Source: a virus
Taxonomy: Duplodnaviria > Heunggongvirae > Uroviricota > Caudoviricetes
IMG/VR virus record: IMGVR_UViG_3300042891_002054
Length of the DNA: 64,000 bases
Direction: 5' to 3' (one strand)
A model generated the notes under the pieces. That model saw only the letters and a list, made by a program, of their open reading frames with translations, was not told the DNA's origin and made no database searches. Both the position numbers and the translations under genes were made by a program. Shown here piece after piece: positions 3,685-64,000 of the stretch; the stretch's first letter is position 1; the number at the start of each line of letters is the position of its first letter.

Positions 3685-3833
3685 TAATAATCGCGATCAA
3701 AATCGGACGCAAATTCAAGAGCAATATCGCGCAGTTTTTCCACTAAAGAATCATCTACAGTACCAAATATATCAGCAACATTATCTATAATATCACCAAT
3801 TGTTTCTTCTAATTCAATGTCATTAAAATTCAT
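3681..3833 (-). CDS. 50-aa highly acidic protein (not in ORF track)
   Basis: MNFNDIELEETIGDIIDNVADIFGTVDDSLVEKLRDIALEFASDFDRDYY; start overlaps the rnh stop; GGAG upstream. Confidence 0.6.
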   Translation of the reverse strand: MNFNDIELEETIGDIIDNVADIFGTVDDSLVEKLRDIALEFASDFDRDYY

Positions 3834-4674: not shown

Positions 4675-4675
4675 T

Positions 4676-47292: not shown

Positions 47293-47309
47293 ACAAAAAG
47301 GTTAAATAT

Positions 47310-47317
47310 TATAAATA
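47310..47317 (+). promoter_or_regulatory. T4-type late promoter
   Basis: TATAAATA upstream of gp18. Confidence 0.8.
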
Positions 47318-47365
47318 ATCTCTATGAAAACTGAATTTCTATTTTTATAACAAGGAGTATTATTT

Positions 47366-49252
47366 ATGGCGTTTCAATTATCACCAGGTGTTAATGTTTC
47401 CGAAATTGATTTAACTAATGTTGTTCCTGCCGTTAGCACCTCAATTGGTGGATTTGCAGGTATATTTGGCTGGGGACCAGCTAATGTCAGAACTTTAATT
47501 GATTCTGAGAATAAATTAGTATCAACTTTCGGTAAACCAACCGATTCAAACTTTACATCATTTTTCTCTGCTGCTAATTTTTTAGCATACACAAACAATT
47601 TAAGAGTCGTTCGTGCAGCGAATAATTCATCTACATTAAATGCCACTGCTAATACATTGGGTATTGGGGTAAACATTGATAATGAATCCGAATATGAATT
47701 ATCATATTCTGTAGAAACACAAACTAAATATGGACAATATTATGCCCGTTATGCTGGTGCATTAGGTAATACATTATCTATTGCGATGTGTTCAAACCCT
47801 CTTGCATTTAAGAGAACTGGATTAACAGCTAACACTGTAACAAATTCAAATGTTGCGTATGTAACAGCAAATGTTACAGGAAATATTTTCGCAAACGATA
47901 TTGTCACCGTTGGTGGAACAGATTATACAATTTCAACTGTTGGTACATACGCAACTGGTACTACCACTTTATATCTGTCATCTGATGCAACCGCAAACGT
48001 TACTCTTGGGTCAGCATCAGTAAAATGGCAATATGCTGATCAATTCGATAGCGCTCCAGGAACATCTATATATGGATCTTCTAAAGGTGCTGTTAATGAT
48101 GAATTACACGTTATTGTTGTTGATACAGATGGTAAATTTACAGGGGATCGCGGAACTGTATTAGAAAAATTTGCACATGTTTCTAAAGCTGGAGATGCAA
48201 AAACTGATGATGGTTCACCAAATTACTATGTAACAAGAATTTTCAACGAATCAAAATATATTTACATTGCTGACCACCCAACAACAGCAACTGATTGGGG
48301 TGTTGATGCATCAGGCACTACTTTTGATGTCACTAATAACCTTTCAGTAAAATTATCAGGCGGTCAAGACGGAAATGTTGGCGACGACGCAATTGTAAAT
48401 GCATATGATTTATTCAGCAACCCAGATGAAGTTGATATTTCATTATTAATTGCTGGCGATGCTGATTTAACTGTTGCAGATAAATTATTGAATTTATCAT
48501 TTACACGTAAAGATTGTGTCGCTTTCTTATCGCCTCTAAGAACAGATGCAGTTTCTGCAGTAGATGTTGACAATATTATTTCATATAGAAATTCATTATC
48601 TCCATCAACATCTTATGGTGTAATGGATAGCGGATGGAAATATCAATTTGATAAATATAACAATAAATACCGCTATGTACCATTAAATGCGGATACAGCT
48701 GGTTTATGTGCTAGAACTGATAATTTAAGAGATCCATGGTGGTCACCTGCTGGGTTCAATCGTGGCCAAGTAATGAATGCAATTAAATTGTCTTGGAATC
48801 CATCAAAGACTCAGCGTGATGAATTGTACAAAAATGGAATTAATCCAGTTTGTGCATTTCCAGGAGAAGGTATTATTCTTTATGGAGATAAAACTTTACA
48901 AGCTAAAGCTAGTGCATTTGATCGTATTAATGTTCGTAGATTGTTTATTGTTCTTGAAAAAGCAATTGCTACTGCAGCAAAATACTCATTGTTTGAATTT
49001 AATGATCAATTCACAAGAGCTCAATTTGTTGCTATGGTTGAACCATTCTTAAGAGATGTTAAAGGTCGTAGAGGTATTTATGACTTCAAAGTTGTTTGCG
49101 ACGAAACAAATAACACACCTGAAGTTATTGATACTAATAGATTTGTTGGTGATATTTACATTAAACCTGCTAGATCTATTAACTTTATCCAATTGAATTT
49201 CGTAGCAGTTCGTACTGGCGTTGAATTCAGTGAAATTGCTGGTAAATTTTAA
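47366..49252 (+). CDS. 18: tail sheath gp18
   Basis: MAFQLSPGVNVSEIDLT, W.SPAGFNRG, FDRINVRRLF, FEFND.FTR, YIKPARSINFI.LNFVA. Confidence 0.97.
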   Translation: MAFQLSPGVNVSEIDLTNVVPAVSTSIGGFAGIFGWGPANVRTLIDSENKLVSTFGKPTDSNFTSFFSAANFLAYTNNLRVVRAANNSSTLNATANTLGIGVNIDNESEYELSYSVETQTKYGQYYARYAGALGNTLSIAMCSNPLAFKRTGLTANTVTNSNVAYVTANVTGNIFANDIVTVGGTDYTISTVGTYATGTTTLYLSSDATANVTLGSASVKWQYADQFDSAPGTSIYGSSKGAVNDELHVIVVDTDGKFTGDRGTVLEKFAHVSKAGDAKTDDGSPNYYVTRIFNESKYIYIADHPTTATDWGVDASGTTFDVTNNLSVKLSGGQDGNVGDDAIVNAYDLFSNPDEVDISLLIAGDADLTVADKLLNLSFTRKDCVAFLSPLRTDAVSAVDVDNIISYRNSLSPSTSYGVMDSGWKYQFDKYNNKYRYVPLNADTAGLCARTDNLRDPWWSPAGFNRGQVMNAIKLSWNPSKTQRDELYKNGINPVCAFPGEGIILYGDKTLQAKASAFDRINVRRLFIVLEKAIATAAKYSLFEFNDQFTRAQFVAMVEPFLRDVKGRRGIYDFKVVCDETNNTPEVIDTNRFVGDIYIKPARSINFIQLNFVAVRTGVEFSEIAGKF

Positions 49253-49264
49253 TTAAACTCAAAT

Positions 49265-49291
49265 TCTTGGTGGAGTAAATCTCCACCAAGA
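49265..49291. terminator. perfect 11-bp hairpin between gp18 and gp19 (terminator or processing site)
   Basis: TCTTGGTGGAG-TAAAT-CTCCACCAAGA, immediately followed by late promoter TATAAATA at 49295-49302. Confidence 0.6.
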
Positions 49292-49344
49292 TTATATAAA
49301 TATTATAAAGAATTTTTACGTTTTTCAACAAGGAGTATCCGAAC

Positions 49345-49884
49345 ATGGCGTTCAATATTGCAGAATTTAGAGCAGCAATGCTTGGTGATGGTGCAAGACC
49401 TAATTTATTTTCAGTGTCTTTAACATTTCCAACAGTTGCTAGTTCACCAATTGCTTCACAAAAGTTAACATTTATGGCACATGCAGCGACATTACCACCA
49501 TCAATTGTTGGTGTTGCAAGTCAGTTTTATTTTGGTCGTCAAGTAAAATTTGCTGGAGATAGACAATTCCCAGATTGGAATATTTCAGTAATCAATGACG
49601 AAGATTTTAGTATTAGAAATGCATTTGAAAAATGGTCTGATAAATTAAATAGTCATTCACAAAATGTTCGTGCTGCTGGTGCAATCAATTCACAGTTATA
49701 TACTGCTGATGCTACCGTAACACAATATTCTAAAACTGGGTTACCAATTAAAACATATAAATTTGTTGGTTTATTCCCTAATACTGTTGATCCAATTCAA
49801 GTTGAATGGGGTTCAAATGACAGAATTGAGGAATTCGGTGTAACATTCTCATATCAATATTGGGAATCCGATTCAGTATCTTAA
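49345..49884 (+). CDS. 19: tail tube gp19
   Basis: GARPNLF.V, GRQVKFAGDR.F.DW, R.AFE.W, IEEF.VTF.YQYW. Confidence 0.96.
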   Translation: MAFNIAEFRAAMLGDGARPNLFSVSLTFPTVASSPIASQKLTFMAHAATLPPSIVGVASQFYFGRQVKFAGDRQFPDWNISVINDEDFSIRNAFEKWSDKLNSHSQNVRAAGAINSQLYTADATVTQYSKTGLPIKTYKFVGLFPNTVDPIQVEWGSNDRIEEFGVTFSYQYWESDSVS

Positions 49885-49925
49885 TATATATAATTATTAT
49901 ACTATCAAATTAAAGGTAAATTATT

Positions 49926-51602
49926 TTGGCTAAATTTTCATTATTCGGATTTAAATTAGGGAAAGATACACCAGCACAGGAAGTGCTACCTTCTTTTTCA
50001 CCACCAGTACTTGATGATGGTGCAGTAACTATCACTGCTGCAGCACATTATGGTACAAGTATTGATTTAGATTCTAATTACAAAAATGATGTTGAGTTGA
50101 TTACTCGATATCGTGAAATGGCTATGCAACCTGAAATTGAAAGCGCAGTTGATGATATTATCAACGAAGCAATTATCCAAGAAGAAGAAAGCGCAGTTGA
50201 AATTGATTTAGACAAAGTAAAAGTATCTCCAAAAGTAAAAAATGCTATTGAAGAAGAATTTGAAAATATCCTGACACTATTAAATTTTAAAAATTTAGGT
50301 CAGGATATTTTTAGACGTTTTTATGTTGATGGTAGATTGTATTATAATATTATTTTAGATAAGGATAATACGGCTGCAGGAATTCAAGAATTAAGATATA
50401 CTGACCCAAGAAAATTAACCAAAATCCGTGAATTAAAAAAAGTTAAAGATCAAATTACTGGTTATGATATAGTACAGGGTTATCAAGAATATTATATCTA
50501 CTCTGAAGTTATATCAACAAAATCAAATTTATCGAATTCAGGTTTAAGGATTGCTCCAGATTCAATCATTGCCGTAACATCTGGTTTATTAGATTCAAAA
50601 AGATCTATTATCTTAAGTTATCTACATAAAGCAATTAAACCTTTAAATCAACTTAGAATGATCGAAGACGCTACGGTCATTTACAAAGTTTCTAGAGCAC
50701 CAGAGCGCAGGATTTTTTATATTGATGTTGGTAATCTGCCTAAAATGAAAGCAGAACAATATCTAAAAGATATTATGACAAAATATAAAAATAAAGTGGT
50801 TTATGATGCTAATACTGGCGAAGTCAGAGATGATAGAAAATACCTTTCTATGATGGAAGATTTTTGGCTACCTCGCCGCTCAGATAATAAATCAACAGAA
50901 ATTACAACATTACCATCATCATCAGCATTTGATGACATGTCAATGGTTCAATATTTTGAGAAAAAATTATATAAGGCTCTTGGCGTACCTTTTTCTAGAT
51001 TAGAACAACCAGAAACGCCATTTGATGTAGGTAATTCAGATCAAATTTCACGAGATGAAATTAAATTTGATAAATTTATCAACAGACTTCGTTTGAAATT
51101 TTCTGATTTATTTGACCAAGCATTAAAAGTTCAATGCTACCTTAAAGGTATTTGTACTGAAGAAGAATTTGAAGAATACAAGCAAAATATTTTTTATGAT
51201 TTCAAAAAAGATAATAATTACGCGGAATTAAAAGAATCTCAATTATTACAAAACAGAGTTAATGTTTTAACAATGTTAGATCCATATGTTGGTAAATATT
51301 ATTCACAAAAATGGATACAAAAAAATGTTCTTCAATTTGATGATGATGATATTGAAGAAATGCAAAAAGAAATTGCAGACGAAATTGAACAAGGATTATA
51401 TCCTGATCCAAAATTAATGAATGATCCAACAATGATGGGTGGGTTAGGCGATGATCCTAATGCAATTCCAGGTGGAGATCAACCGCAACAACCAGATGAC
51501 GGTGGCCAACAAGATAAAGATGCAGCTCCTGCAGCTAAGAAAAAAAGTAAACCTGCTGATGCAGATTCTGATCAACAAGATAATCCTTACTACAATGCCT
51601 AA
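49926..51602 (+). CDS. 20: portal protein gp20
   Basis: YREMA..PEI..AVDDI.NE, FYVDGR, YLHKAIKP.NQLRM.EDA.VIY...RAPERR.FYIDVG, EDFWLPRR; TTG start. Confidence 0.97.
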   Translation: MAKFSLFGFKLGKDTPAQEVLPSFSPPVLDDGAVTITAAAHYGTSIDLDSNYKNDVELITRYREMAMQPEIESAVDDIINEAIIQEEESAVEIDLDKVKVSPKVKNAIEEEFENILTLLNFKNLGQDIFRRFYVDGRLYYNIILDKDNTAAGIQELRYTDPRKLTKIRELKKVKDQITGYDIVQGYQEYYIYSEVISTKSNLSNSGLRIAPDSIIAVTSGLLDSKRSIILSYLHKAIKPLNQLRMIEDATVIYKVSRAPERRIFYIDVGNLPKMKAEQYLKDIMTKYKNKVVYDANTGEVRDDRKYLSMMEDFWLPRRSDNKSTEITTLPSSSAFDDMSMVQYFEKKLYKALGVPFSRLEQPETPFDVGNSDQISRDEIKFDKFINRLRLKFSDLFDQALKVQCYLKGICTEEEFEEYKQNIFYDFKKDNNYAELKESQLLQNRVNVLTMLDPYVGKYYSQKWIQKNVLQFDDDDIEEMQKEIADEIEQGLYPDPKLMNDPTMMGGLGDDPNAIPGGDQPQQPDDGGQQDKDAAPAAKKKSKPADADSDQQDNPYYNA

Positions 51603-52011
51603 ATCAAAACATAAAGAGTTACCACAAGTATTAGTATTAAAGAGAACATTTATCCAAAGATTCCCTAATGGACAACAAGTTGCATTATATCATTCAGATC
51701 ATTTAGATCAATATATAACAATTCCATTAGATGGTTCTCAATTTTCAAATACAACAGAAGCTGTGATTGAAAAATTAAATCAAATATCTGAGAATAATGA
51801 TACCCAAACTATATTGTTTGATGACTTATCCGAGTTGAATATAAATAAAGAATGTGCTGATGTAATTTTAAATTTTATTGAATCTAATGAAGAAGTAATT
51901 GAACATTTAACTGTCTCAGATAAAAGTTTTCTAGAAGTATTAGAACAAGCTGCACAAATAACATCAGATATAATGGAATCTGATCAACAACAGGAGTTAA
52001 CAGAACAATGA
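51595..52011 (+). CDS. conserved prohead-region hypothetical protein
   Basis: Start re-placed at MPKSK; PQVLVLKR..I.RFPNGQ.VALY.S..L..Y.TIP motif. Confidence 0.65.
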   Translation: MPKSKHKELPQVLVLKRTFIQRFPNGQQVALYHSDHLDQYITIPLDGSQFSNTTEAVIEKLNQISENNDTQTILFDDLSELNINKECADVILNFIESNEEVIEHLTVSDKSFLEVLEQAAQITSDIMESDQQQELTEQ

Positions 52012-52649
52012 AAGTGTTAAACGAATTTACCGAGACAGATGTTCTTGTGGAAGAAGTTGGCGGTAAAAAACAACATTCAATTAAAGGTTATTTTATTCAT
52101 TGCAATGAACAAAATAGAAACGGAAGAATTTATGTAAAAGAAAATATGCTTCCTGAAGTTGCTAGATATAAAAGAGATTATATTGATACTCGTAGAGCTT
52201 TAGGTGAATTATCACACCCAGAAGGTCCACAAATTAATCCAGATAAAGTATCTCATCTTATTACAAAATTAGATTTTGATGATCACCGTTGTTTCGGTGA
52301 AGCTACAATTTTAGATACACCAAATGGCAATATCGTAAAATCATTTATTGATGCTGGTGTAAATTTTGGCGTTTCTACTCGTGGTATGGGGTCAATTAAA
52401 GAATCTAATGGTATTAAATATGTCCAACCAGATTTTCGTTTAGTCACAGTTGATATTGTTTTAGATCCATCTGGTAAAGATTGTTATGTTGAAGGATTGA
52501 TGGAAGGTAAAGAATGGATGTATATTGAAGGGAAAGGTTGGGTTGAGCAATATCTAGAAGAATCTAGAGAAACGCTAAAAAAACTTAAAGCTGCTGATGT
52601 TGAACCAGTTGCTTTACAAATATTTGAAAACTTTTTACGAAAATTATAA
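52008..52649 (+). CDS. 21: prohead protease gp21
   Basis: I.G.F....QNRNGR.Y, RALGELSHP, VSH.I, GVSTRG.GS, D.V.DPS. Confidence 0.95.
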   Translation: MKVLNEFTETDVLVEEVGGKKQHSIKGYFIHCNEQNRNGRIYVKENMLPEVARYKRDYIDTRRALGELSHPEGPQINPDKVSHLITKLDFDDHRCFGEATILDTPNGNIVKSFIDAGVNFGVSTRGMGSIKESNGIKYVQPDFRLVTVDIVLDPSGKDCYVEGLMEGKEWMYIEGKGWVEQYLEESRETLKKLKAADVEPVALQIFENFLRKL

Positions 52650-52690
52650 TTTTAATAAATAATTATTAAATAATATTAAGGAGATATTTA

Positions 52691-53851
52691 ATGTCACAAG
52701 ATAAAAATTTAAACCTTTCTGAAGCAGCAATGGAAATCTTGAATGCAAACAGAAAATCTAAAGATTCTGGCCAAGATTCATTTGGTTTAGGTCAAAAATT
52801 GAATGATACCATTCATGGTTCTGCACAAAATGTAGGTAATCCAGGTTTAGAAAAACCTGCAGTAAATGGTCCAACAGCTACACCCCCAGGTCAAACTCCA
52901 CCAGTTGGGTCTGAAGCAGGACAGCATTTATCAGCACAACCAGCCAATAAAACTATTTCAAATACTGATGTAGACCAAATACCAAGTAAAACTTCAACAG
53001 AACCTGCTGGTGATTCAGCTAACAACCCAGAAGCTGCTAAAAAATTAAAATCAGCTCCTGCTAAAACTGTTAATCCAACTGGCGCTAAAACTGGTGGATT
53101 TGTTAACGAAGAAGAAGAAGAAACTAACGAAGATATTGCAGCATTAATGGCTGGCGAAAATCTTTCTGAAGAATTTAAACGTAAAGCAACAGCAATTTTT
53201 GAAGCAGCTGTAAAAACTAAAGTTGCTGAATTGGCTGAAGAATTAGAAGCACAATATGTTGCTCAATTCGAAGAAGCTTATGAAGAAATGAAAGAAGATT
53301 TCGCAACTAAAGTTGATGAGTATTTAGATTACGTTGCTGAATCTTGGATGGAAGAAAATAAATTAGCAGTAGAATCAGGTTTAAGAACTGAAATTGCTGA
53401 AGGTTTTATTGATTCATTAAAAACTGTATTCGAAGAACACTATATCGACATTCCTGAAGAAAAATTTGATGTAGTAGAAGAATTAGCTTCTAAAGTAGAG
53501 GCATTAGAAAGACAAGTCAATGAAGAAATGACAAAAAACATTGATTTGAAACAAAAATTGTCAGAACAAAAGAAAGTTGAAGCTCTTCACTCTGTATGTG
53601 AAGGGTTAACATTATCTCAAGCTGAAAAAATTAAAACTATTGCAGAGAGCGTAGAATTTGTAAGCGAAAGTGATTTTGTTGATCAAATTGAAGCAATTAA
53701 AGAATCTTATTTCTCAGTTGCAACAGTTAAACCTGCTTCAATCGAATCTTTAAACGATGTAGTAAATTTAAACGAAGAAAAAGAAACTAAAGCTGTTGAT
53801 CCATTGATTGCTGCTTATGCTTCTAGAATCTCAAAAACATTATTAAAATAA
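52691..53851 (+). CDS. 22: prohead scaffold gp22
   Basis: LSEEFKRKATAIFEAA, VD.YLDYVAE.WMEEN.LA.E.G.RTEI.E.F, LT.SQ.EK. Confidence 0.93.
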   Translation: MSQDKNLNLSEAAMEILNANRKSKDSGQDSFGLGQKLNDTIHGSAQNVGNPGLEKPAVNGPTATPPGQTPPVGSEAGQHLSAQPANKTISNTDVDQIPSKTSTEPAGDSANNPEAAKKLKSAPAKTVNPTGAKTGGFVNEEEEETNEDIAALMAGENLSEEFKRKATAIFEAAVKTKVAELAEELEAQYVAQFEEAYEEMKEDFATKVDEYLDYVAESWMEENKLAVESGLRTEIAEGFIDSLKTVFEEHYIDIPEEKFDVVEELASKVEALERQVNEEMTKNIDLKQKLSEQKKVEALHSVCEGLTLSQAEKIKTIAESVEFVSESDFVDQIEAIKESYFSVATVKPASIESLNDVVNLNEEKETKAVDPLIAAYASRISKTLLK

Positions 53852-53889
53852 ATAATATTTTAAAATAAAAATAAAAGGAGTTAATTTAA

Positions 53890-55188
53890 ATGGCTTTATT
53901 AAATGAAGAATTAGAAGCTAAATGGAGTCCAATTTTGGAACATCCTGAAATGGCTAAAATCGCTGATCCATACAAAAAAGCAGTTACTGCTATTGTATTG
54001 GAAAATCAACAAATCGCAATGGAACAAGATCGTCAAACTTTGAACGAAACTGCTCCAACTAACGTTGCTGGTGGTATTTCTAACTTTGATCCTATCTTAA
54101 TCAGCTTGGTTCGTCGTGCATTACCTAACTTGATCGCGTATGACGTTGCTGGCGTTCAGCCAATGACTGGTCCTACTGGTTTGATCTTTGCTTTACGTTC
54201 ACGTTATGGCACACAATCAGGTGATGAAGCATTCTACAACGAAGCTAACACTATCTTCTCAGGTATTGTTGGTACTAATGGTACAGTTCCAAGCGGTATT
54301 GCTAACTCAGCTGTTGGCTCAACTGGTCCTTTAGCTAACACATCATTTGATACTGGTGTTGGTATGGCTACTGCTACTGGTGAAGCATTGGATGCTGCGT
54401 TTGCTCAAATGGCTATCTCAATCGAGAAAGTTACTGTTTCTGCAAAAACTCGCGCATTAAAAGCTGAATACAGTTTAGAAATGGCACAAGACTTGAAAGC
54501 GGTTCATGGTTTAGATGCTGAAACAGAATTATCAAATATTCTGTCTACAGAAATCTTAGCTGAAATGAACCGTGAAGTTATTCGTACTATCTACACAGTT
54601 GCAAAACCAGGTGCTCAATTCGGTACTGTTACTTCAGGTGTTTTCGATTTAGATACAGACTCTAATGGCCGTTGGTCAGTTGAAAGATTTAAAGGTTTAA
54701 TTTATCATATCGAACGCGAAGCGAATCAAATCGCAAAAGCAACTCGTCGTGGTAAAGGTAACATTTTGATCGTTTCTTCAGACGTTGCTTCAGCGTTAGC
54801 TATGGCTGGTGTATTACAATATACTCCTGCTTTAAGTGCTGATTTAACTGTTGATGATACTGGTAACACCTTCGCTGGTTTGTTACATGGTCGCATCAAA
54901 GTTTACATCGATCCATATTTTGGTGGTTCTGCTCAAAACGTAGAATTAGTAACTGTTGGTTATAAAGGTACAAGCCCTTATGACTCAGGTATTTTCTACT
55001 GCCCATACGTTCCTTTACAAATGGTTCGTGCGGTTGATCCAGGTACTTTCCAACCAAAAATTGGTTTCAAAACTCGTTACGGTATCGTAGCAAACCCATT
55101 CGCTGAAGGTTTAACTCAAGGCTTGGGTGCTATTACTCCTCGTAGCAACAACTATTACAGAATTTTTGCAGTGAAAAATTTGATGTAA
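53890..55188 (+). CDS. 23: major capsid protein gp23
   Basis: KW.PIL, LENQ, DPILISLVRR..PNLIA.D..GVQPM.GPTG, SLE.AQDLKA.HG.DAE.EL, YCPYVPL, IGFKTRYG. Confidence 0.98.
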   Translation: MALLNEELEAKWSPILEHPEMAKIADPYKKAVTAIVLENQQIAMEQDRQTLNETAPTNVAGGISNFDPILISLVRRALPNLIAYDVAGVQPMTGPTGLIFALRSRYGTQSGDEAFYNEANTIFSGIVGTNGTVPSGIANSAVGSTGPLANTSFDTGVGMATATGEALDAAFAQMAISIEKVTVSAKTRALKAEYSLEMAQDLKAVHGLDAETELSNILSTEILAEMNREVIRTIYTVAKPGAQFGTVTSGVFDLDTDSNGRWSVERFKGLIYHIEREANQIAKATRRGKGNILIVSSDVASALAMAGVLQYTPALSADLTVDDTGNTFAGLLHGRIKVYIDPYFGGSAQNVELVTVGYKGTSPYDSGIFYCPYVPLQMVRAVDPGTFQPKIGFKTRYGIVANPFAEGLTQGLGAITPRSNNYYRIFAVKNLM

Positions 55189-55211
55189 TAGTTAAGTTTC
55201 AAGGATGAAAC

Positions 55212-55240
55212 AAAAAGGGAGCTTCGGCTCCCTTTTCTTT
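55212..55240. terminator. bidirectional intrinsic terminator
   Basis: AAAAA-GGGAGC-TTCG-GCTCCC-TTTT. Confidence 0.9.
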
Positions 55241-55779
55241 TACTTAAAGAATTGTTCTATCCTACCAAGAATAACTGTTTGATCATCAAAATTATTATTA
55301 AAAAAAGTTTCAGAAATAAACATAAATTCCATATTTGTTTGTATATTTGAAATTTTAGTATTTCTACCTTTTAAGAAAGTTTCTGATTGATTAGATCCAC
55401 GCTCTTCGTATCTTTCTGATAATAAATCTTCATTTGCTGTAATAACAAAAATTTGAAAATCTGTATCGGGTAAAGAAGATAATAAATCAAAGAACGTTGA
55501 ACTTGTTAACCTATCTCCCTCAAAAATAATATTTGAGTTTACTGATTTTACAAATTCAACAGCTGCAGGCATTACTGCCATACTCATTCTATCTGTACCA
55601 GCAAATACTTCACCATCTTCATATTTACCTAGAATATGTAAATCTAATTCTTTATTATACAGACTAGGAACTAATTTAACAAGTTCTTGTTTTTCCCATT
55701 CTTTGTGTTCAATAAATTTTCTAAAAAGGGTTGTTTTACCAACCCCTGGACGACCAATCACTGCTAAAATTTTTCTCAT
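55240..55779 (-). CDS. P-loop nucleotide kinase of the type linked to DNA-modification clusters
   Basis: GRPGVGKTT Walker A; LGKY...FAGTDRMSM; IIFEGDRL; R..RGSNQ...FLKGR.TKI.N. Confidence 0.75.
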   Translation of the reverse strand: MRKILAVIGRPGVGKTTLFRKFIEHKEWEKQELVKLVPSLYNKELDLHILGKYEDGEVFAGTDRMSMAVMPAAVEFVKSVNSNIIFEGDRLTSSTFFDLLSSLPDTDFQIFVITANEDLLSERYEERGSNQSETFLKGRNTKISNIQTNMEFMFISETFFNNNFDDQTVILGRIEQFFK

Positions 55780-55787
55780 ATTTTACC

Positions 55788-57170
55788 TTAAAAGAATGCA
55801 TCAATACTATTACCAAATCTACGATCATATAAATTTTTATGATATTGTTGTAACCAATCTTTACCGTTTGGTTGGGTCAACAAATAATCAATCCATTCAT
55901 CCGAATCCCACAACCCTGGACTAATTCCATTCCATCTAAATCTTTGTTCCGGATGATCAGGATTTAATCTTCTAGAGTCAACAAATTCTCTACGAGTATT
56001 TTCATAATCAAATGACCCAAGTTCTAACATACCTTCATGGAAAAAAGCAATAATAGAAATTCTCTCAGCATCCGGATCATTTAATATTAATTCTGTATTA
56101 CCATGTAAACCAGCTTGATTATTTACCAATAATAAATCTGTTGGTCGAATATTTACCGCATACCCAACCTCAGGAAAAACCAAATAACAACCCTCAAATG
56201 CATCATTATTAGACATCACACAAAGATTAGCAAAACCGTCTTCCATATTAGCAGGGTCATAATGACCAGCTGTTCTAAAATTTTTATTTACTGTAATTGT
56301 TGTAAATGGAGTTTCAGGAACAACAAATTTCGGATCAATAGATTCAGCAGCACGTTTTTGGTTTCCATATCGCCAAGGCAACATATCATTAAATCCTTTA
56401 GCTAAGGATTGTAGAAAAGGATATGCTTTAGCAAACTTTTCTGGATTATCTCTTGTATAAGAAGTTGCTCTTCCCCATGGAATCCTAGGGTATCTATCAT
56501 ACCAACCAGCAATTCCAGAATTAACAACATTAGCATAAGTTGTTTTGCTGATATAGTTATCCAAAATATCTTGAGCTCTTTCTTTAGCTATTTCTGGAGA
56601 TTCTGAACAAAGAGCATCAGCAAATTCATTAAATACAAAATTATTCTGTTTGACTTTTTCAGCTAACCAAACAACTCCGCGACTTTCATCTGACTTTAAA
56701 GTTTTATATTTCGCTCTAATTGAATCAATTTCTTTTTTTGGGTCATAATTACCGAAAATATCTTTTGAGTTATTTTTAATGAAAAATTCAAGAATATCGA
56801 ATTGTTCATCTTTAACCCATTCTCTACCAGCACAGGTTCCATCTCTTGGACCACCTGCCATACCTCTATTTTGAGTTTCTACCGCAGCATCCCTTAAACC
56901 GGCATATGCAGCTGCTGCTTCTTCTTTATTAAAGAAATTTTTTCTAAACTTAAAAACAATATTTTTTTCTGTTAATCCTTTAGTACATGAATTACATACC
57001 ATATTTCTATCACAATTTTCTTCTGCGGTAAAATCTGAACATTCAGGAGGAAGATATAAATCAAAATCTTCTTCCACTAAAGTGTGATAATGTGTATGGT
57101 CTAACCATTTCCCGACTAAATCCGGTCTTGGTTTGACTTCTTCTGGCCTTAAAACTACTACTTGTACCAT
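55788..57170 (-). CDS. TET/JBP-family 2OG-Fe(II) dioxygenase
   Basis: PFTTITVNKNFRTAGHYD (HxD), LVFPE.G.AV, LHGNT (distal His), ERISII (2OG-binding RxS); N-terminal GWYDRYPRIP..R.T.Y. Confidence 0.85.
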   Translation of the reverse strand: MVQVVVLRPEEVKPRPDLVGKWLDHTHYHTLVEEDFDLYLPPECSDFTAEENCDRNMVCNSCTKGLTEKNIVFKFRKNFFNKEEAAAAYAGLRDAAVETQNRGMAGGPRDGTCAGREWVKDEQFDILEFFIKNNSKDIFGNYDPKKEIDSIRAKYKTLKSDESRGVVWLAEKVKQNNFVFNEFADALCSESPEIAKERAQDILDNYISKTTYANVVNSGIAGWYDRYPRIPWGRATSYTRDNPEKFAKAYPFLQSLAKGFNDMLPWRYGNQKRAAESIDPKFVVPETPFTTITVNKNFRTAGHYDPANMEDGFANLCVMSNNDAFEGCYLVFPEVGYAVNIRPTDLLLVNNQAGLHGNTELILNDPDAERISIIAFFHEGMLELGSFDYENTRREFVDSRRLNPDHPEQRFRWNGISPGLWDSDEWIDYLLTQPNGKDWLQQYHKNLYDRRFGNSIDAFF

Positions 57171-57209
57171 CTATAACTCCATCATTTTAAAAAAACATTC
57201 AACAAGTTT

Positions 57210-57238
57210 ATTATACATTACATGTTGAAAAAAGTAAA
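57210..57238 (-). promoter_or_regulatory. sigma70-type promoter (extended -10) for the dioxygenase-kinase operon
   Basis: TTTACT-17 nt (ending ATG)-TATAAT, i.e. TGTATAAT. Confidence 0.7.
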
Positions 57239-57262
57239 GGGATTTTTAATCTATTTAGAATT

Positions 57263-57270
57263 TATAAATA
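57263..57270 (+). promoter_or_regulatory. T4-type late promoter
   Basis: TATAAATA upstream of gp3. Confidence 0.75.
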
Positions 57271-57301
57271 CCTGTAAACTCCATTTGGAAAGGATTTCTC
57301 A

Positions 57302-57832
57302 ATGACAATTAAAGATACATCTGTTTGTAACAACGATCTATTACAATCAGCAAAATTTATACTATCATTCCCAAGATTAACATCAACTCAATTTTTTTGT
57401 CAATCAGTAAATATTCCTGGACTATCAACTCAAAATACATTACAAAATACTCCATTTTCGGATTTAAGTATTCCTGGCGATAAACTTGTTTATGAACCAT
57501 TTAATATTGAATTTTTGGTTGATGAGGAAATTCAATCTTGGATGGCAGTACATGATTGGATGAGAGGGATTACTTTTCCAACAGAATTTAGTGAATACAC
57601 AAATTTAAACCATGCATCAAAATACAGCGAGAACGTACCATACCCACAATACGCAGATGCTGAGCTAACTATCTTAGCTGCAAATAATACCCCTAAAATG
57701 AAAGTACACTTTATTGATATGTTTCCAATATCGTTATCACAAGTACCTTTGGATATTAGATTGGGTTCTGAACACACAATAACTGCAACTGCTAATTTTA
57801 AATTTAAAAGATACGATATTACCAGAATTTAA
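57302..57832 (+). CDS. 3: tail completion / tube terminator gp3
   Basis: F..QSVNIPG, PGDKL.Y..F.I.FLVDE....W..V.DW, DA.L.IL...N, F.D.FP.SL. Confidence 0.9.
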   Translation: MTIKDTSVCNNDLLQSAKFILSFPRLTSTQFFCQSVNIPGLSTQNTLQNTPFSDLSIPGDKLVYEPFNIEFLVDEEIQSWMAVHDWMRGITFPTEFSEYTNLNHASKYSENVPYPQYADAELTILAANNTPKMKVHFIDMFPISLSQVPLDIRLGSEHTITATANFKFKRYDITRI

Positions 57833-57865
57833 AACCTATATATTATTTTAATATGTGAGATTTTT

Positions 57866-58306
57866 ATGGTAAAGCTTGAGCAAATAATTGAATATTGGAA
57901 AAAAGATGGACAGATTGATGAATCGAAACCTCACCAAGAATTAATCAACACACCAATCCTACATGCGAAATATGTTGAAATTTTATCTCAACATAGACTT
58001 GCTGCGCAAAAAGCAAAATTCGATTATTCTAAGATGAAAAAAATTCGTAGAGAATATTATCTAGGAAATTTAGATAAAGAAACATTAGACGAATATAATT
58101 GGGAACAATTTGATTTAAAAATTGGGACAAAAGGGAATATAGATTTATATCTAGAATCTGATGATTACTTAATTAGATTATTAGAAAAAAAAGCATACTA
58201 TGAAGAGTGCATTTTTATTTGTGAATCTATTTTAAAAGAATTAAACAACAGAACTTGGCAACTCAGAGAGTATCTTACTTACCATAGATTCTTGGCAGGA
58301 AACTGA
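57866..58306 (+). CDS. uvsY: recombination mediator UvsY
   Basis: W.KD..ID.......EL...P.LHAKY, EYY.G, I.KEL..RTWQ. Confidence 0.9.
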   Translation: MVKLEQIIEYWKKDGQIDESKPHQELINTPILHAKYVEILSQHRLAAQKAKFDYSKMKKIRREYYLGNLDKETLDEYNWEQFDLKIGTKGNIDLYLESDDYLIRLLEKKAYYEECIFICESILKELNNRTWQLREYLTYHRFLAGN

Positions 58307-59817
58307 TGATTATTGAAGTCAATAAAATAAATGAAACATACGCATTTTTACACTGCGATAGATCAATTGCACAAGAATTGAATGATTATTTTTCATTCTA
58401 TGCAACTGGGTATAAGTTCATGGCTGCTTATAAAAGCAGGTTATGGGATGGAAAAATTCGTCTAGCCAAAATATTACCAAATGGTGATGTTGAATTTTAT
58501 ATGGGTTTATTAAACCAACTTGAAGCATTTTGTAAAGACAGGGAATATTCTATTGAATATAATTATGTTGAAAATTATAATCCGGTCCAATCTTTAGAAT
58601 TACATAAATTTATTTCCGAATTAAATATACATTCTAATAACAATAAAATTGAAGTTAGAGATTATCAATTTAATGGAGTGTTAAATTTTCTCAACAATAA
58701 AAGATTAGTTTTATTGAGTCCAACTTCCAGCGGGAAAAGTTGCATTCTGTATATTATAGTTAGATATTTACTTCAATATGGAAAGAAAAAAGGTTTATTA
58801 TTAGTTCCAAATACAAGTTTATGTCATCAGTTAACATCAGATTTTGCAGATTATTCTTCACATAATGGTTGGGACGCTCATAATGAAATTCACACTATCT
58901 TTGCAGGTAAAGATAAAGTAGCCCGCAATTCGCTATATATTAGTACATGGCAATCATTACAAAATATAAAAGATAAATCGTATTTCGAACAATTCGATTT
59001 TGTATTAACTGATGAATGTCATTTAGCTGCAGCCAAATCGTTAACTGATATTATATCTAAATGCGTTAATGCTGACTATAGAGTTGGTGTTACAGGTACA
59101 TTAAATGGTCAAAAAATACATTCTCTTCAATTAGAAAGTTTATTTGGCCCAGTTAAACGGGTTATAACAACTAAAGAATTAATGGAGAAAAAACAGGTTA
59201 CCGAATTAGCCATTAAATGTCTTGTTTTAAAATATCCAGAACACTTAACTAAATTAACACAGAAATTAAAATATCAACAAGAATTAGAATATTTAATTTC
59301 TAATGAACAACGAAATAAATTTATAAAAAATTTAGTTCTTAGTTTAAAAGGTAATACATTATTACTCTACCAATATGTTGAGAAACATGGAGATGTATTA
59401 TACGATTTAATTTCTAAATCAAAATATGCAGCCGATAAACAAATTTATTATATACATGGAAATATAAAAGCTGAGGAAAGGGAATCTATTAGGAAAGCAA
59501 TGGAAACTCAAGATAATGTTATTTTAATTGGTAGTGTTGGTACAGTTTCTACTGGAACTAATATTAAAAATTTACATAATATTATTTTTGCTAGTCCAAG
59601 TAAATCAAGAGTTAGAAATCTTCAAGCAATTGGTCGAGTATTAAGATTAAATGAAAATAAAGATAAAGCTATCTTATATGATTTAGCTGATGATTTAAGG
59701 TATAAAAAGCATCAAAATTATACTATGACTCATTTCCAAGAACGTATCAAAATTTATAATGAAGAAAAATTTGATTTTAAAATTGTTAATGTTGAATTAA
59801 ATATTCCCCCTATATAA
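58306..59817 (+). CDS. uvsW: DNA helicase UvsW
   Basis: SPTSSGKS, DECH, G.TGT, STGTNIKNLH..IFASPSKS.VR.LQ.IGR.LR. Confidence 0.96.
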   Translation: MIIEVNKINETYAFLHCDRSIAQELNDYFSFYATGYKFMAAYKSRLWDGKIRLAKILPNGDVEFYMGLLNQLEAFCKDREYSIEYNYVENYNPVQSLELHKFISELNIHSNNNKIEVRDYQFNGVLNFLNNKRLVLLSPTSSGKSCILYIIVRYLLQYGKKKGLLLVPNTSLCHQLTSDFADYSSHNGWDAHNEIHTIFAGKDKVARNSLYISTWQSLQNIKDKSYFEQFDFVLTDECHLAAAKSLTDIISKCVNADYRVGVTGTLNGQKIHSLQLESLFGPVKRVITTKELMEKKQVTELAIKCLVLKYPEHLTKLTQKLKYQQELEYLISNEQRNKFIKNLVLSLKGNTLLLYQYVEKHGDVLYDLISKSKYAADKQIYYIHGNIKAEERESIRKAMETQDNVILIGSVGTVSTGTNIKNLHNIIFASPSKSRVRNLQAIGRVLRLNENKDKAILYDLADDLRYKKHQNYTMTHFQERIKIYNEEKFDFKIVNVELNIPPI

Positions 59818-59846
59818 TTATATGATGTTAGTTAATTGAGGATATT

Positions 59847-60236
59847 ATGATAGAAAATTTTAATATAAAAATTGTTAGAATGAAAAGCGGTGAAGATATT
59901 ATTGCTTTTGTTTTTGAAGATTATAAAAATAAAAAAATACACTTAAAATTCCCTAAAACTTTTTATTTTAATTATGACACTGATACCGAAGAAGAAGATT
60001 TGGTTTTAGTAGATTGGATGACAAGAAAAGCTTTTGCTTATCAAGAAGTTTATTTTTCAATGGATGAAATTCTATTTACAACTTATTCAAGTATTATGTT
60101 TGGGTATGAATACCTAGATGCATTACTACAAAATATGGATCCAACTTCGGAACTAGCAGCAAAAATCCAAGAAAGTATTGATGGGATTAAATCAGGTAGC
60201 GATTTAGATATTCCAGATGATACAACAATGCATTAA
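59847..60236 (+). CDS. conserved hypothetical protein downstream of uvsW
   Basis: IKIVRMKSGEDIIA pattern typical of T4-like Sm-like small proteins. Confidence 0.7.
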   Translation: MIENFNIKIVRMKSGEDIIAFVFEDYKNKKIHLKFPKTFYFNYDTDTEEEDLVLVDWMTRKAFAYQEVYFSMDEILFTTYSSIMFGYEYLDALLQNMDPTSELAAKIQESIDGIKSGSDLDIPDDTTMH

Positions 60237-60259
60237 CGTAATCAAGTACGATTAATTTA

Positions 60260-60343
60260 ATTCCCTACGGGAATCTGCTGCGCAGAAATCTAATTTGTTA
60301 CATTAATTATGTTTCGAAGGAACGACGAAGGAGTTCCGAAGAA
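60260..60343. repeat. second GNA mini-hairpin cluster
   Basis: ATTCCC-TAC-GGGAAT and TCTGC-TGC-GCAGA (GTA/GCA loops on the minus strand); CGAAG at 60315, 60326 and 60337 (11-nt spacing). Confidence 0.75.
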
Positions 60344-60356
60344 AACCCATAGTTGT

Positions 60357-60385
60357 ATAGTAACCTAAAACTTTTAATAAAGCAA
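60357..60385 (-). promoter_or_regulatory. promoter with TTAGGT element pointing into the non-coding hairpin cluster
   Basis: GC-TTGCTT-17 nt (ending TTAGGT)-TACTAT. Confidence 0.55.
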
Positions 60386-60551
60386 GCTATTTTTTGTAAG
60401 TTATTGATTTTTCTAGATACTTGTATATTCTCTAGTCAAGCGTTGATATATTAAAATTATATTAATATGTTTTATAGAATAAAATAAAAAGCTTTCTTTT
60501 TTTACTGAATCATAGTATAATAAAATTTATTAAAGTGTAATTGGAGTTATT

Positions 60552-61208
60552 ATGGAAGAGTTGAAATTTGATTTTGATATCGTTGAGGAAGATATTCCGG
60601 AACTAGTTGAAGAAATTTTTGAAGAGCCTGAAGAAAAAATACAACCCTCCAAAAGAAAAAAAGTTCCTAGAAATTATATTAATAATTCTGATTTTTGTGA
60701 TGCTCTTATAAAGTATAAAGAAGATTGTATTGTTGCTGAAACTGAAGGAAAATCCAAACCAAGGATACCGAATTATATTGGCGAATGTTTTATGAAATTA
60801 GCCGAGGGTTTAGCGCGTCGTCCAAATTTTTTCGGATATTCTTATAAAGATGAAATGATTGCTGATGGGATTGAGAATTGTTTAACATACTTTCAAAATT
60901 TTAACCCTGAAAAAACTAAAAATCCATTTGCTTATTTTACTCAAATTCTTTGGTGGTGTTTTGTTCGTAGGATTCAGAAAGAAAAAAAACAACAATATAT
61001 TAAATATAAAGCAACAGAAAACTTCGGTATATTAGATGAAGCTGAATTACTGGAACTAGGTGATGGTCAAATAAAACAGATAGAAGTATATGATAATATG
61101 TATGATTTTATTCAAAAATTTGAAGAAACTGAATTTAAAAAAATTAATAAAGCTGTTACACCCAAAAAGCAAAAAATTATTGGTGTAGAAAAATTCATGG
61201 AGGAATAA
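60552..61208 (+). CDS. 55: late sigma factor gp55
   Basis: NYINN.DF..AL..Y, IPNYIGECF.K.AEGL..RPNF.GY.YKDEMI.DG.EN, NPFAYFTQI...FVRRI.KEK.Q. Confidence 0.97.
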   Translation: MEELKFDFDIVEEDIPELVEEIFEEPEEKIQPSKRKKVPRNYINNSDFCDALIKYKEDCIVAETEGKSKPRIPNYIGECFMKLAEGLARRPNFFGYSYKDEMIADGIENCLTYFQNFNPEKTKNPFAYFTQILWWCFVRRIQKEKKQQYIKYKATENFGILDEAELLELGDGQIKQIEVYDNMYDFIQKFEETEFKKINKAVTPKKQKIIGVEKFMEE

Positions 61209-61311
61209 TGTATGATATAGACGCAATAATTTTTCATAATATATCCAAAAATATTTAATTACAGTAACTATTTATTTTTAATATTTTAACTTAATAAGGA
61301 GGTATGTCGCT

Positions 61312-62377
61312 ATGAAAATTTGTTTCTTAGGTGACACCCATTTTCGGTGCTAGAGGTGATAGTCAACATTTCCATGAATTTTTTGATCTATTCTATACAA
61401 ATGTATTTTTTCCCTATCTTATAGAAAATAATATAAAAATTGTAATCCAATTAGGTGATATTTTTGATCGCAGAAAATATAGTAATCATTATACTTTATC
61501 TGAATCTAAACGATATTTCTTTTCTAGGTTTGGTGAACTTGGTATTGAATTAGAAACATTACTCGGTAATCACGATTTATTTTATAAAGAATCTTTATCA
61601 GTTAGTTCCAGTGAATTGTTTTTAAAACAGTTTAAAAATGTCAATGTAATAAAAAACCCAACTCAGTTAAAGAAATTTGATATTTCTGTTATCCCATGGA
61701 TATGCAAAGAAAATTATGATGACTGTTTAAAATTTATTAAAAACGACACTTCCCATATGTGCGTTGGCCACTTTGAGATTGAAGGGTTTAAAATGTATCA
61801 GAGTAGCATTTTATCTGAACATGGTTTATCTGTAAAAATGTTTTCTAATTATGAACGAGTATTGTCTGGTCATTATCATCACGCATCTAAACGTGGTAAT
61901 ATTGAATATATTGGTACTCCCTATGAAATGACTTGGCAAGATTTTGGTGATCAAAAAGGTTTTAGAGTTTACGATTTAGAAACTAGGTCTTTAGAAATTA
62001 TTGAAAATCCATATTCAATATTTTGTAAAATACTTTATGATGATTCAGGTGAAACTGATATTGTTAAATCAACATATTTAGATAAAGAATATTTAAAAAA
62101 TGTTATTGGGAAATATGTTAAGATTCAGGTAAAAAACAAAACAAATCCTTATCTATTTGATTTATTCATAGATCAAGTCTATCAACATTCCCCTATTGAT
62201 GTTTCATTAACCGAAGAAATAGTTGATATTGAAATTGAAGAAGATGTGGACGAAACAGATGATACTTTAACTATCACCTACAAATATATTGATAGTATAA
62301 ATCAACAAGAATTAGATAAAAATAAATTAAAAGGTATGATGTCTAATTTGTATAATGAAGCGATGCAGGTTGAGTAA
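61312..62377 (+). CDS. 47: recombination nuclease gp47 (Mre11-like), reading frame interrupted at codon 11
   Basis: AAGGAGG RBS then MKICFLGDTH(F) in one frame; GARGDS..., LGDIFD, GNHD, GHFE, SGHYH, Y.GTPYE.TW.D in the +1 frame. Confidence 0.9.
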
Positions 62378-62577
62378 TGGTTATTTTTGAAAAAATACGG
62401 TTTAAAAATTTTTTATCATATGGTAACACTTTTACCGAAATCCCGTTGAATGTTGAAAGAACTACCCTGTCAACTGGTGTAAATGGGCAGGGTAAATGTG
62501 TTCATCCATCAACAAAAATTGATATTATATTCGATGATCCTGCAACGGAAAAATTATTTAAAGAATTTCTTTCCTAG
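62377..62577 (+). CDS. 46: gp46 (Rad50-like) N-extein (aa 1-40) fused to a 26-aa intein N-fragment
   Basis: F..IRFKNFLSYGN...G.NG.GK is the gp46 start; the Walker A Ser is replaced by intein block A CVHPSTKI, then a stop. Confidence 0.9.
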   Translation: MVIFEKIRFKNFLSYGNTFTEIPLNVERTTLSTGVNGQGKCVHPSTKIDIIFDDPATEKLFKEFLS

Positions 62578-62590
62578 ACCATTTAATTTT

Positions 62591-62598
62591 TATAAATA
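62591..62598 (+). promoter_or_regulatory. T4-type late promoter for the endonuclease ORF
   Basis: TATAAATA about 33 nt upstream of ATG 62631. Confidence 0.7.
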
Positions 62599-62630
62599 TA
62601 ATTATAAGTTATAAATTTTATGGTAATTAT

Positions 62631-63674
62631 ATGTCCGCGTTCAAGATAGATACATGGTTAAAGAAAGGTTATACTGAGGAAGAAGCAAAATATCAAATAA
62701 AAATTAGGAGACCGTGTAATATAGAATATTATATGCATAAATTTGGGGTTGATGTTGCTGAAGCTGAAGAAATGCGAAGAGCAAATCAACAAAAAGGTGC
62801 TAAAGTTGTATCCCAAAAACCAAAAGAGCAATTTAAACTAACATCACCTAGATGCGTTGAGTATTGGGTTAATCAAGGATTTTCGGCGTTAGAAGCAAAA
62901 GAAAAAGTATCTGAAATTCAATCTACTTTTTCTTTACAGAAATGTATTGATAAATATGGTCCAATTTTAGGAGTTGAAGTGTGGCAAACAAGACAAATTT
63001 CTTGGCAAAACACTTTAAATTCGAAATCTGTAGATGATAAGAAATCTATGAATTCTAAAAAAACTACGTTAAAATTGGATATATTTACCAATAAATATGG
63101 ACATAATATAGGTAGAGAAAAATTTATAGAGTGTTTAATTGCAAAAAATTGTAAAGTTTTTTATTCTTTAAACGAGTTAGAAAATTATCTATATGATACC
63201 GTACAAGAATTTGATTTATATTTACCATTAAATTATTTTAAAAAGAAATATTTAAAACTATATTACTTTGAATTATTTGATATGCCTACCAATATTAATT
63301 TTTGGTTAACATCTATTTTTAAATTTAAATCTACAACAAATCCAATAAAATTAACTGGAAAACATGGAAATTTTTTATATTCAATGGTTGTTGGTAAAAA
63401 ACTTTTACGATCTTCTAATGAAATTTTATTCTATAACCTTTTAATAGAACATGGTTTACAGTTAGATACAGATTTTATTATAGAAAAGTATTACCCAAAT
63501 TCTAAAATGAGGTGCGATTTTTATATTATAGAAACTGATACATGGATAGAATTAGCTGGATATTTTGATGAAGAATACTTACAAAAAATGAAATATAAAG
63601 AATCTACTTTTGGTTCTATTATATTGTATGATAAAACCCAATATAAACTTTTTATTGAAAATATACAAAAATAA
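62631..63674 (+). mobile_element. free-standing putative homing endonuclease (PD-(D/E)xK/Vsr-like C-terminal domain) inside fractured gp46
   Basis: Repeats W.KKGY.EEEA, YW..QG....EA and KYG...G..; C-terminal SSNE..FY.LL...RCDFYI.....WIELAG. Confidence 0.75.
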
Positions 63675-63676
63675 TT

Positions 63677-64000
63677 ATGGAAACTACAGTTGGTGATGTT
63701 GTAAAATTTTACGAAAAATATCCTGCAATGCGCGGTAAACTTTCTGTAAAAACTCGATTTGGATATAAAATTATTGAAGGAGCAGCTTTAACTGCAAAAC
63801 ACTCTCAAGTCTTAAAATTTAAAGTTGATTCTGGAAATCAAATAAAAGTTTCCCCCGATCATTTAATGTTAAGTAATAATTGTGAATGGAAACCGAGTAA
63901 AACTTTAACTGTGGGAGATTTTCTTTTTACTGAAAATGGTCCTGTTAAAATTACTTCTATAAAAATGCTTAAATCGAAAGAAGATCTTTTCGATTTGCAA
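63677..64000 (+). CDS. 46: intein C-fragment of split gp46 (runs off the window; block G and C-extein not visible)
   Basis: Manual translation METTVGDVVKFYEKYP...VKTRFGYKII...IKVSPDHL (block B TxxH-like)...KTLTVGD...DLFDLQ (block F-like). Confidence 0.8.
   Translation, partial: METTVGDVVKFYEKYPAMRGKLSVKTRFGYKIIEGAALTAKHSQVLKFKVDSGNQIKVSPDHLMLSNNCEWKPSKTLTVGDFLFTENGPVKITSIKMLKSKEDLFDLQ

Follow-up and report, generated by a model that had tools for sequence, protein, structure and literature searches.

The 64,000-nt stretch of DNA analyzed here (the window; IMG/VR record IMGVR_UViG_3300042891_002054) is a segment of the genome of an uncultured T4-like phage from lake water. On its minus strand, it carries an operon of two genes that encode a TET/JBP dioxygenase (TET) and a small P-loop kinase. 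The operon probably supplies the two enzymes that prime a split pathway of post-replicative thymidine hypermodification with a clamp-held dioxygenase. The tailoring genes, encoding a glutamine amidotransferase (GATase), an amidoligase, a GNAT acetyltransferase, a ParB-like protein, and an amino-acid:DNA transferase (AADT), are located 55 kb from the TET/kinase pair in the same genome. Most likely, TET and the kinase carry out the two opening steps of a DNA-camouflage pathway that has been described before. The split layout of the pathway looks new, as does the polymerase-like C-terminal tail on TET.

In the proposed pathway, phage DNA would first be made with ordinary thymine. The dioxygenase would hydroxylate the 5-methyl group of T in DNA to 5-hydroxymethyluracil (5hmU), and the kinase would add one phosphate to that hydroxyl, yielding 5-phosphomethyl-dU (5-PmdU), as shown for M6 gp54. 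The AADT would then displace the phosphate with an amino acid, and the class-II GATase, the amidoligase, and the GNAT acetyltransferase would finish the adduct. The ParB-like protein of the distal cluster may activate the dioxygenase, which probably reaches the DNA by holding the gp45 sliding clamp via its C-terminal NSIDAFF tail.

The product of gene 1 is a true TET/JBP (5mYOX) Fe(II)/2-oxoglutarate dioxygenase. It matched the Pfam family Tet_JBP (PF12851) with 83.6 bits (cut-off 34.9) over residues 227–379 and phrog_24024 with an E-value of 3.5e-131; a search of TET against NCBIfam gave no match. The HxD...H...RxS signature recognized in the initial annotation was located at H303-Y-D305, H356, and R370-I-S372, all inside the Tet_JBP core, and the Fe(II) facial triad HxD...H and the 2-oxoglutarate-binding arginine are both present. 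Among 40 homologues (52–87% identity), H303, D305, H356, and R370 were invariant and S372 was at least 90% conserved. An AlphaFold2 model of TET (mean pLDDT 86.3, pTM 0.76) was nearest to human TET2-DNA (4nm6; VIA-align Z 19.4, root-mean-square deviation 4.3 Å, 266 residues), with Z of 17.5–18.2 for CMD1, CcTet, and NgTET1, whereas ALKBH3/AlkB-type enzymes reached at most 13.8. The top matches in a Foldseek search with the model were likewise TET-type DNA dioxygenases (E 7.5e-9). The structural alignment to TET2 covers model residues 1–401, and what looks like an N-terminal extension therefore belongs to the TET fold, with a helical insertion, rather than forming a domain of its own. The family comprises 2,289 proteins at E ≤1e-5, mostly of 450–480 aa. 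Gene 1 is listed here as a predicted DNA dioxygenase converting thymine to 5hmU.

Four cysteines of TET (C44, C53, C59, and C62; residues 44–62, positions 56985–57041, minus strand) are at least 90% conserved. The loop that holds them has pLDDT <50 at residues 46–60 and is missing from the homologues P0067 and L020; a dispensable zinc knuckle is one possible interpretation. In public databases, TET homologues are labeled 'SNF2 DNA repair protein' in Cr30 (L001), DLP_6 (L002), S-CBWM1, and HTVC112P.

A tblastn search with the relatives' GATase, amidoligase, low-molecular-weight (LMW) phosphatase, AADT, and GNAT proteins gave no match in the window. The JGI contig Ga0453727_0000035 (108 kb) is identical to window positions 45788–64000 (0 mismatches over 18,213 nt) and encodes the exact TET protein. 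From the window-equivalent position 112,565 onward, it carries a SegE-type GIY-YIG gene, a GATase_6 gene (231 aa), a gene for a 292-aa protein homologous to the amidoligase of the related locus L005 (29% identity, E 4e-32), and a GNAT gene. Contigs that are 99.75–99.93% identical continue with a 441-aa ParB-like gene and then the start of an AADT gene, and a contig of ~97–98% identity carries the complete AADT (339 aa; PF18724, 77.6 bits). Since the distal GATase is 61% and the distal AADT 65–70% identical to the enzymes encoded between TET and kinase in L005 and L019, they are, judged by this likeness, genes of the same pathway in another place.

The presence of AADT, GATase, amidoligase, GNAT, and ParB-like genes in the same genome suggests that the phosphorylated base is an intermediate. 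This bears on the oxidize-then-phosphorylate route put forward in the initial annotation: its two enzyme families stand, but the route is not self-contained, the AADT and tailoring genes being found 55 kb away. A self-contained two-gene system, in which TET makes 5hmU and the kinase makes 5-PmdU as the final protective base of the virion, is improbable. In the window, as in no fewer than six independent contigs, TET and kinase indeed have the slot to themselves, and 5-PmdU is stable enough for detection by liquid chromatography-mass spectrometry (PMC8989533). However, the same genome encodes an AADT, a member of the family that consumes 5-PmdU, and its GATase, amidoligase, and GNAT genes are orthologous to genes that stand between TET and kinase in relatives.

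The SegE-type GIY-YIG homing endonuclease gene precedes the distal tailoring cluster, and the 441-aa ParB-like protein itself starts with a GIY-YIG-like segment (L048:8864-9265 and L048:11457-12782; ~48–52 kb past the window end). Nuclease-driven mobility might be the origin of the split of the pathway.

Regarding the substrate, searches of five related contigs with lengths of up to 126 kb yielded neither a C5-methyltransferase (PF00145) nor a ThyA-type hydroxymethylase (PF00303), and both families are absent from the precomputed Pfam tables of window positions 1,029–64,000 plus the next 50 kb (~114 kb of the genome). The lack of an adjacent methyltransferase mentioned in the initial annotation therefore extends over that whole range, and of the genes for which it had suggested a genome scan, the C5-methyltransferase and the dUMP hydroxymethylase were not found in these ~114 kb, while the AADT (aGPT-Pplase) was, in the distal cluster. 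Because ThyX, a dCMP deaminase, and MazG are encoded, the genome is expected to make ordinary thymidine triphosphate. Characterized AADT enzymes act on 5-PmdU, and O'Toole et al. (PNAS 2026, PMC13229309) demonstrated thymine dioxygenase activity for phage 5mYOX enzymes from the cluster that is associated with GATase, kinase, and AADT genes. The statement in the initial annotation that characterized phage TETs act with a C5-methyltransferase is outdated by these biochemically demonstrated thymine dioxygenases. Thymine is the likely TET substrate because no C5-methyltransferase or dUMP hydroxymethylase was found, because the partners of this TET are AADT and TET-associated glycosyltransferase (TAGT), and because T-dioxygenases have been published.

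It is also unlikely that TET acts on 5-methylcytosine (5mC) supplied by the host or by an unseen phage methyltransferase, with the kinase phosphorylating 5-hydroxymethylcytosine. Some phage TETs are 5mC dioxygenases, kinases occur in some contigs with C5-methyltransferase and TET, and TET89 accepts T as well as 5mC (Burke et al., PNAS 2021, PMC8256090); part of the genome also lies outside the covered sequence. Against this stand the lack of PF00145 in ~114 kb of the genome and in the five related contigs, the characterized AADT substrate, the co-occurrence of a C5-methyltransferase with only 6% of the mined 5mYOX pathways, and the TAGT partners in relatives, which parallel the JBP/JGT pairing.

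Gene 2 was initially described as a small P-loop kinase, and this description holds. Its Walker A motif is intact, with G9, P11, G12, G14, K15, and T16 invariant among 27 homologues, as are the D89-R90 pair and the lid arginines R123, R127, and R139. The match to the Pfam family Ploopntkinase3 (PF18751) is borderline (27.7 bits, cut-off 27.0), and NCBIfam yielded sub-threshold generic kinase matches only. The best PHROG is phrog_800 (E 7.7e-13, profile positions 33–191), which is also matched by M6 gp54 (E 2e-39, positions 33–211), the characterized 5-hmdU DNA kinase (Lee et al. 2021, PMC8989533). A profile-to-sequence comparison of the two with hhalign gave 93.3% probability (E 2.6e-7, 88 columns) and aligned the P-loop, the common motif ILGKYE..G..AGTDR, and FEG. 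In the relatives L005, L019, and L020, the kinase gene adjoins the AADT gene or is one small open reading frame (ORF) away. Gene 2 is predicted to encode a 5-hydroxymethyluracil DNA kinase (5-HMUDK type). With both family assignments upheld, the initial proposal that the operon belongs to a post-replicative DNA hypermodification system stands, most likely one that starts from thymine.

Very unlikely, in our estimation, is an ordinary nucleoside monophosphate (NMP) or dNMP precursor kinase beside a TET that alone makes 5hmU as end product or regulatory mark. The AlphaFold2 model of the kinase (pLDDT 92) has a generic NMP/adenylate-kinase P-loop fold nearest to adenylate, guanylate, and gluconate kinases, JGI calls homologues 'broad-specificity NMP kinase', and the Pfam score is at threshold. 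The kinase nevertheless shares its PHROG and the ILGKYE..G..AGTDR motif with M6 gp54, it is always last in the AADT cassette of relatives, and a T4-type dNMP kinase (PF21448) is already encoded in the genome. M6 gp54 (L025:13686-14249) and the whole of phrog_800 are mislabeled 'terminase small subunit' in public annotation.

The same TET is encoded at 19 IMG/VR loci with 49–99% identity, and in closer relatives it occupies the same slot between gp3 and gp23. The modules that follow it (Table 1) vary between glycosyltransferase and kinase/AADT types; we therefore suggest that the constant TET makes a hydroxymethyl handle, which would then be either glycosylated or phosphorylated and substituted. 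The initial annotation had remarked that no glycosyltransferase is adjacent. This is correct for the window, but in close relatives a glycosyltransferase replaces the kinase route at the same slot. Caulobacter phage Cr30 has a TET, an AADT, a kinase homologue, and a TAGT-like match that is weak and sub-threshold, all spread across ~9 kb.

Two further genes of relatives were seen beside TET. In L013 (4716-6158), an extra 480-aa protein with a sub-threshold REase_MTES_1575 match is encoded after TET and TAGT and before the capsid gene; a modification-dependent nuclease and a selfish insert are both conceivable. Between TET and AADT of Cr30 (L001:7196-7723), a protein with a dATP/dGTP diphosphohydrolase N-terminal domain (PF18909, E 5e-34) is encoded, which may point to a second alteration of nucleotide or base metabolism in this phage.

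Twenty public metagenome runs from lakes or fresh water, belonging to 18 studies, contain the exact stretch 55100–57400 (some of these runs are possibly the source sample), and 34 blocks of an assembly collection list the exact TET protein. The phage is therefore widespread in lakes. No RNA run is listed among the public runs that carry this stretch. That the TET/kinase pair is a decaying, non-functional remnant left by deletion of the middle of an L005-type cassette is scarcely credible: relatives do have four genes between TET and kinase, but both ORFs are intact with every catalytic residue present, the exact TET protein recurs in the assembly blocks and the stretch in the runs just mentioned, and the missing genes are present elsewhere in the genome.

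The second component of the preferred interpretation, a split pathway with a clamp-held dioxygenase, concerns the C-terminus of TET. The protein ends in ...RRFGNSIDAFF, the DNA polymerase (gp43) of the same phage in ...HERMNSIEDFFS, i.e. NSIEDFFS, and gp55 in ...IIGVEKFMEE; the NSIDAFF of TET is near-identical to the polymerase end. Such hydrophobic-acidic C-termini of gp43 and gp55 are established ligands of gp45 (PMC2988020). Of 120 TET homologues, 118 have the tail (107 under a strict pattern), and in relatives the TET, TAGT, group-1 glycosyltransferase, AADT, GNAT, and polymerase proteins all end in [SNG][LI][DE]xFF-like tails. Across 114.5 kb of the genome, 5 of 205 ORFs of at least 60 aa have ends of this type, namely a weak 62-aa ORF, the kinase, TET, gp55, and gp43. 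The kinase end RIEQFFK was downgraded as a candidate clamp tail, as it forms a confident terminal helix and the pattern is found loosely in 24 and strictly in 4 of 120 homologues.

A complex of three copies of the phage's own clamp, the gp45 encoded at L040:16767-17450, with TET residues 416–460 was predicted. The model scored 0.67 compared to 0.00 for the best of three controls. In the calibration of this procedure, 58 of 80 solved complexes attained the docking mark, as did 2 of 110 mismatched pairs. At least 92% of contacts are common to the runs, whose partner pLDDT is at least 73, and I456 and F459 of TET are placed in a pocket of one protomer (clamp residues 32–39, 105–112, 202–203, and 216–221). 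The prediction supports binding of the TET tail to the sliding clamp. We put the chances at about even that hypermodification in these T4-like phages is coupled to replication via the clamp, with the enzymes riding gp45. Neither Lee et al. nor O'Toole et al. mentions such a tail (PMC8989533, PMC13229309), and no report linking the sliding clamp to phage hypermodification enzymes was found in the literature library that was searched.

Two other proteins of the window have loosely tail-like ends. RNase H (3823–4716, minus strand) ends in LECIDEF and could be a further clamp client; a baseplate protein (PF12322; 20550–21269, minus strand) ends in EDIFDFFT, probably by chance.

Several observations weigh against the pathway as proposed. 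The related 126-kb contigs are rated 71% complete, so that a C5-methyltransferase is possible in the remaining sequence; the rating suggests that about one third of the window phage genome lies beyond the covered sequence. In the contigs of at least 99.75% identity the AADT gene is cut by the contig end, and the full gene is seen only in the relative of ~97–98% identity. The ParB_N match of the 441-aa protein is sub-threshold (19.8 compared to 26.3 bits), and no ParB_N or ParB-like protein was found in five related contigs (fragments) with the same TET. The Pfam score of the kinase barely reaches its cut-off, and pairwise BLASTP of the kinase with M6 gp54 gives no alignment. For the clamp model, the calibration counts hold only roughly, as own alignments and three clamp copies were used. 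Since a complex of the RB69 clamp with a polymerase peptide has already been solved (PMC2988020), resemblance to this known complex may account for the docking pass.

The organization of the locus agrees with the initial description of a two-gene antisense cassette between gp23 and gp3 that has its own promoter and a shared terminator (Table 1). The window has a G+C content of 30%, and the closest match of its capsid gene is the one in Pelagibacter phage HTVC008M (71.5% nt identity). The TET and kinase ORFs are separated by 8 nt, and the pair sits between the major head gene and the tail gene in gp3 position, beyond which uvsY, uvsW, and gene 55 follow in turn. The predicted TTTACT/TATAAT promoter (57238–57210 in the direction of transcription) scores 10/12, is located 40 nt ahead of the TET ATG, which is preceded by GGAG, and has no second of its kind in the 131 nt between the divergent genes. 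As a group, promoter-like sequences show no enrichment in this region (14 compared to 11 ± 3.3 expected); the promoter is therefore called on the strength of its position and score. The putative terminator hairpin lies where the capsid and kinase genes converge, in the 51 nt that separate them, just outside the start of the element as initially annotated (55240), and could serve both genes.

A perfect T4 late-promoter box, TATAAATA, is found at 57263–57270 (plus strand), 32 nt ahead of the ATG of the gene in gp3 position (57302); it stands back to back with the predicted promoter that faces the TET operon on the minus strand. Read on the minus strand, the same positions give TATAAATT, a 7/8 match to the late box that is oriented toward TET.

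Table 1. Features of the TET/kinase locus (window coordinates) and modules found behind TET at related loci
Feature	Position	Strand	Details
Major head (capsid) gene	53890-55188	+	phrog_138, E 2.9e-156
Putative bidirectional terminator hairpin	55213-55236	both	G+C-rich, 10 pairs, T-runs on both sides
P-loop kinase gene	55240-55779	-	179 aa
Walker A (P-loop) codons of the kinase	55732-55755	-	G9-R-P-G-V-G-K-T16
TET/JBP gene	55788-57170	-	460 aa
Last seven codons of TET	55791-55811	-	N454-S-I-D-A-F-F460; hydrophobic-acidic tail as in gp43, gp55
Core double-stranded beta-helix stretch of TET	56034-56492	-	residues 227-379, Pfam Tet_JBP match range
Predicted sigma70-like promoter, early/middle type	57210-57238	-	TTTACT, 17-nt spacer, TATAAT
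Tail-tube-like gene, gp3 position	57302-57832	+	176 aa; phrog_45; PF23849 in contig tables
Module after TET: TAGT (PF20691)			L007, L009, L013-L015, L017, L021, L022
Module after TET: group-1 glycosyltransferase			L012, L016
Module after TET: GATase, amidoligase, LMW phosphatase, AADT, kinase			L005, L006
Module after TET: GATase, GNAT, AADT, 134-aa protein, kinase			L018-L020
Module after TET: kinase alone			window, L004, L034, L036-L039

Lee et al. (NAR 2021, PMC8989533, Fig. 2, sequences 22–25) catalogued gene neighborhoods in which TET_JBP stands beside 5-HMUDK, aGPT-Pplase, amidoligase, and glutamine amidotransferase, and the ParB-associated T-dioxygenase neighborhoods form clade C1 of O'Toole et al. 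(PMC13229309). Like these metavirome clusters, the window phage has TET_JBP, P-loop kinase, AADT, GATase, amidoligase, GNAT, and ParB-like genes, presumably acting after replication, and no nearby C5-methyltransferase or dUMP hydroxymethylase. Unlike them, its genes are distributed over two loci 55 kb apart instead of one cluster, its ParB-like gene is far from TET and has a GIY-YIG-like N-terminus, and its TET, a long one with 460 aa, has a polymerase-like C-terminal tail predicted to bind the clamp.

With the phages M6, PaMx11, ViI, SP10, and PhiW-14, the window phage has in common a kinase of the PHROG of M6 gp54, an AADT of the same Pfam family, and a predicted order of 5hmdU, 5-PmdU, and amino-acid adduct. 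M6-type phages, however, make 5hmdU before replication by a dUMP hydroxymethylase, whereas in the window phage it is predicted to arise in the polymer by a DNA dioxygenase; for tailoring, GATase, amidoligase, and GNAT take the place of the pyridoxal phosphate (PLP), radical S-adenosylmethionine (SAM), or flavin adenine dinucleotide (FAD) enzymes of the M6 type. Trypanosome base J (JBP1/2 and JGT) provides a parallel in a TET/JBP dioxygenase acting, here by prediction, on T in DNA, and in close relatives the same TET is directly followed by a TAGT. The window phage differs from it by the kinase/AADT route in place of glycosylation and has no JBP-type J-DNA-binding domain. The phage 5mC dioxygenases of Burke et al. 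(PMC8256090), in some of whose contigs P-loop kinases and aGPT-Pplases occur, belong to the same superfamily and follow the same logic of post-replicative hypermodification; unlike in those systems, no C5-methyltransferase was found here, hence the prediction of T as substrate.

With regard to the tail, TET resembles the T4-type clamp clients gp43, gp55, and gp33, which carry a short hydrophobic-acidic C-terminal tail (PMC2988020). In contrast to TET, whose binding is predicted, none of the described gp45 ligands is a DNA-modifying enzyme. An analogy is the PCNA-binding PIP box of the eukaryotic DNA methyltransferase DNMT1.

TET-primed thymidine hypermodification is a published type of gene neighborhood, and its T-dioxygenase step has been shown in vitro. 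We know of no final product of a cluster of the GATase/amidoligase/GNAT type. Since lake metagenomes contain the phage in abundance, it should be possible to obtain material for nucleoside mass spectrometry. The present locus indicates that the pathway is divisible across a genome, so that neighborhood mining undercounts such pathways and may take TET and kinase pairs as complete systems. It further shows one capsid-proximal slot at which, behind a constant TET, glycosyl tailoring modules and amino-acid tailoring modules replace each other.

O'Toole et al. (PMC13229309) call the rationale of post-replicative modification a mystery. A polymerase-type tail on modifying enzymes, with its predicted binding, offers a concrete targeting mechanism, and it may explain partial activity in E. 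coli assays that contain no phage clamp. The modifying enzymes would ride the gp45 clamps that the phage clamp loader leaves on new phage DNA. If this is true, clamp riding would explain the choice of phage over host DNA and the efficient coverage of the former, as well as why unrelated tailoring modules can be swapped into one slot, provided that the tail is present.

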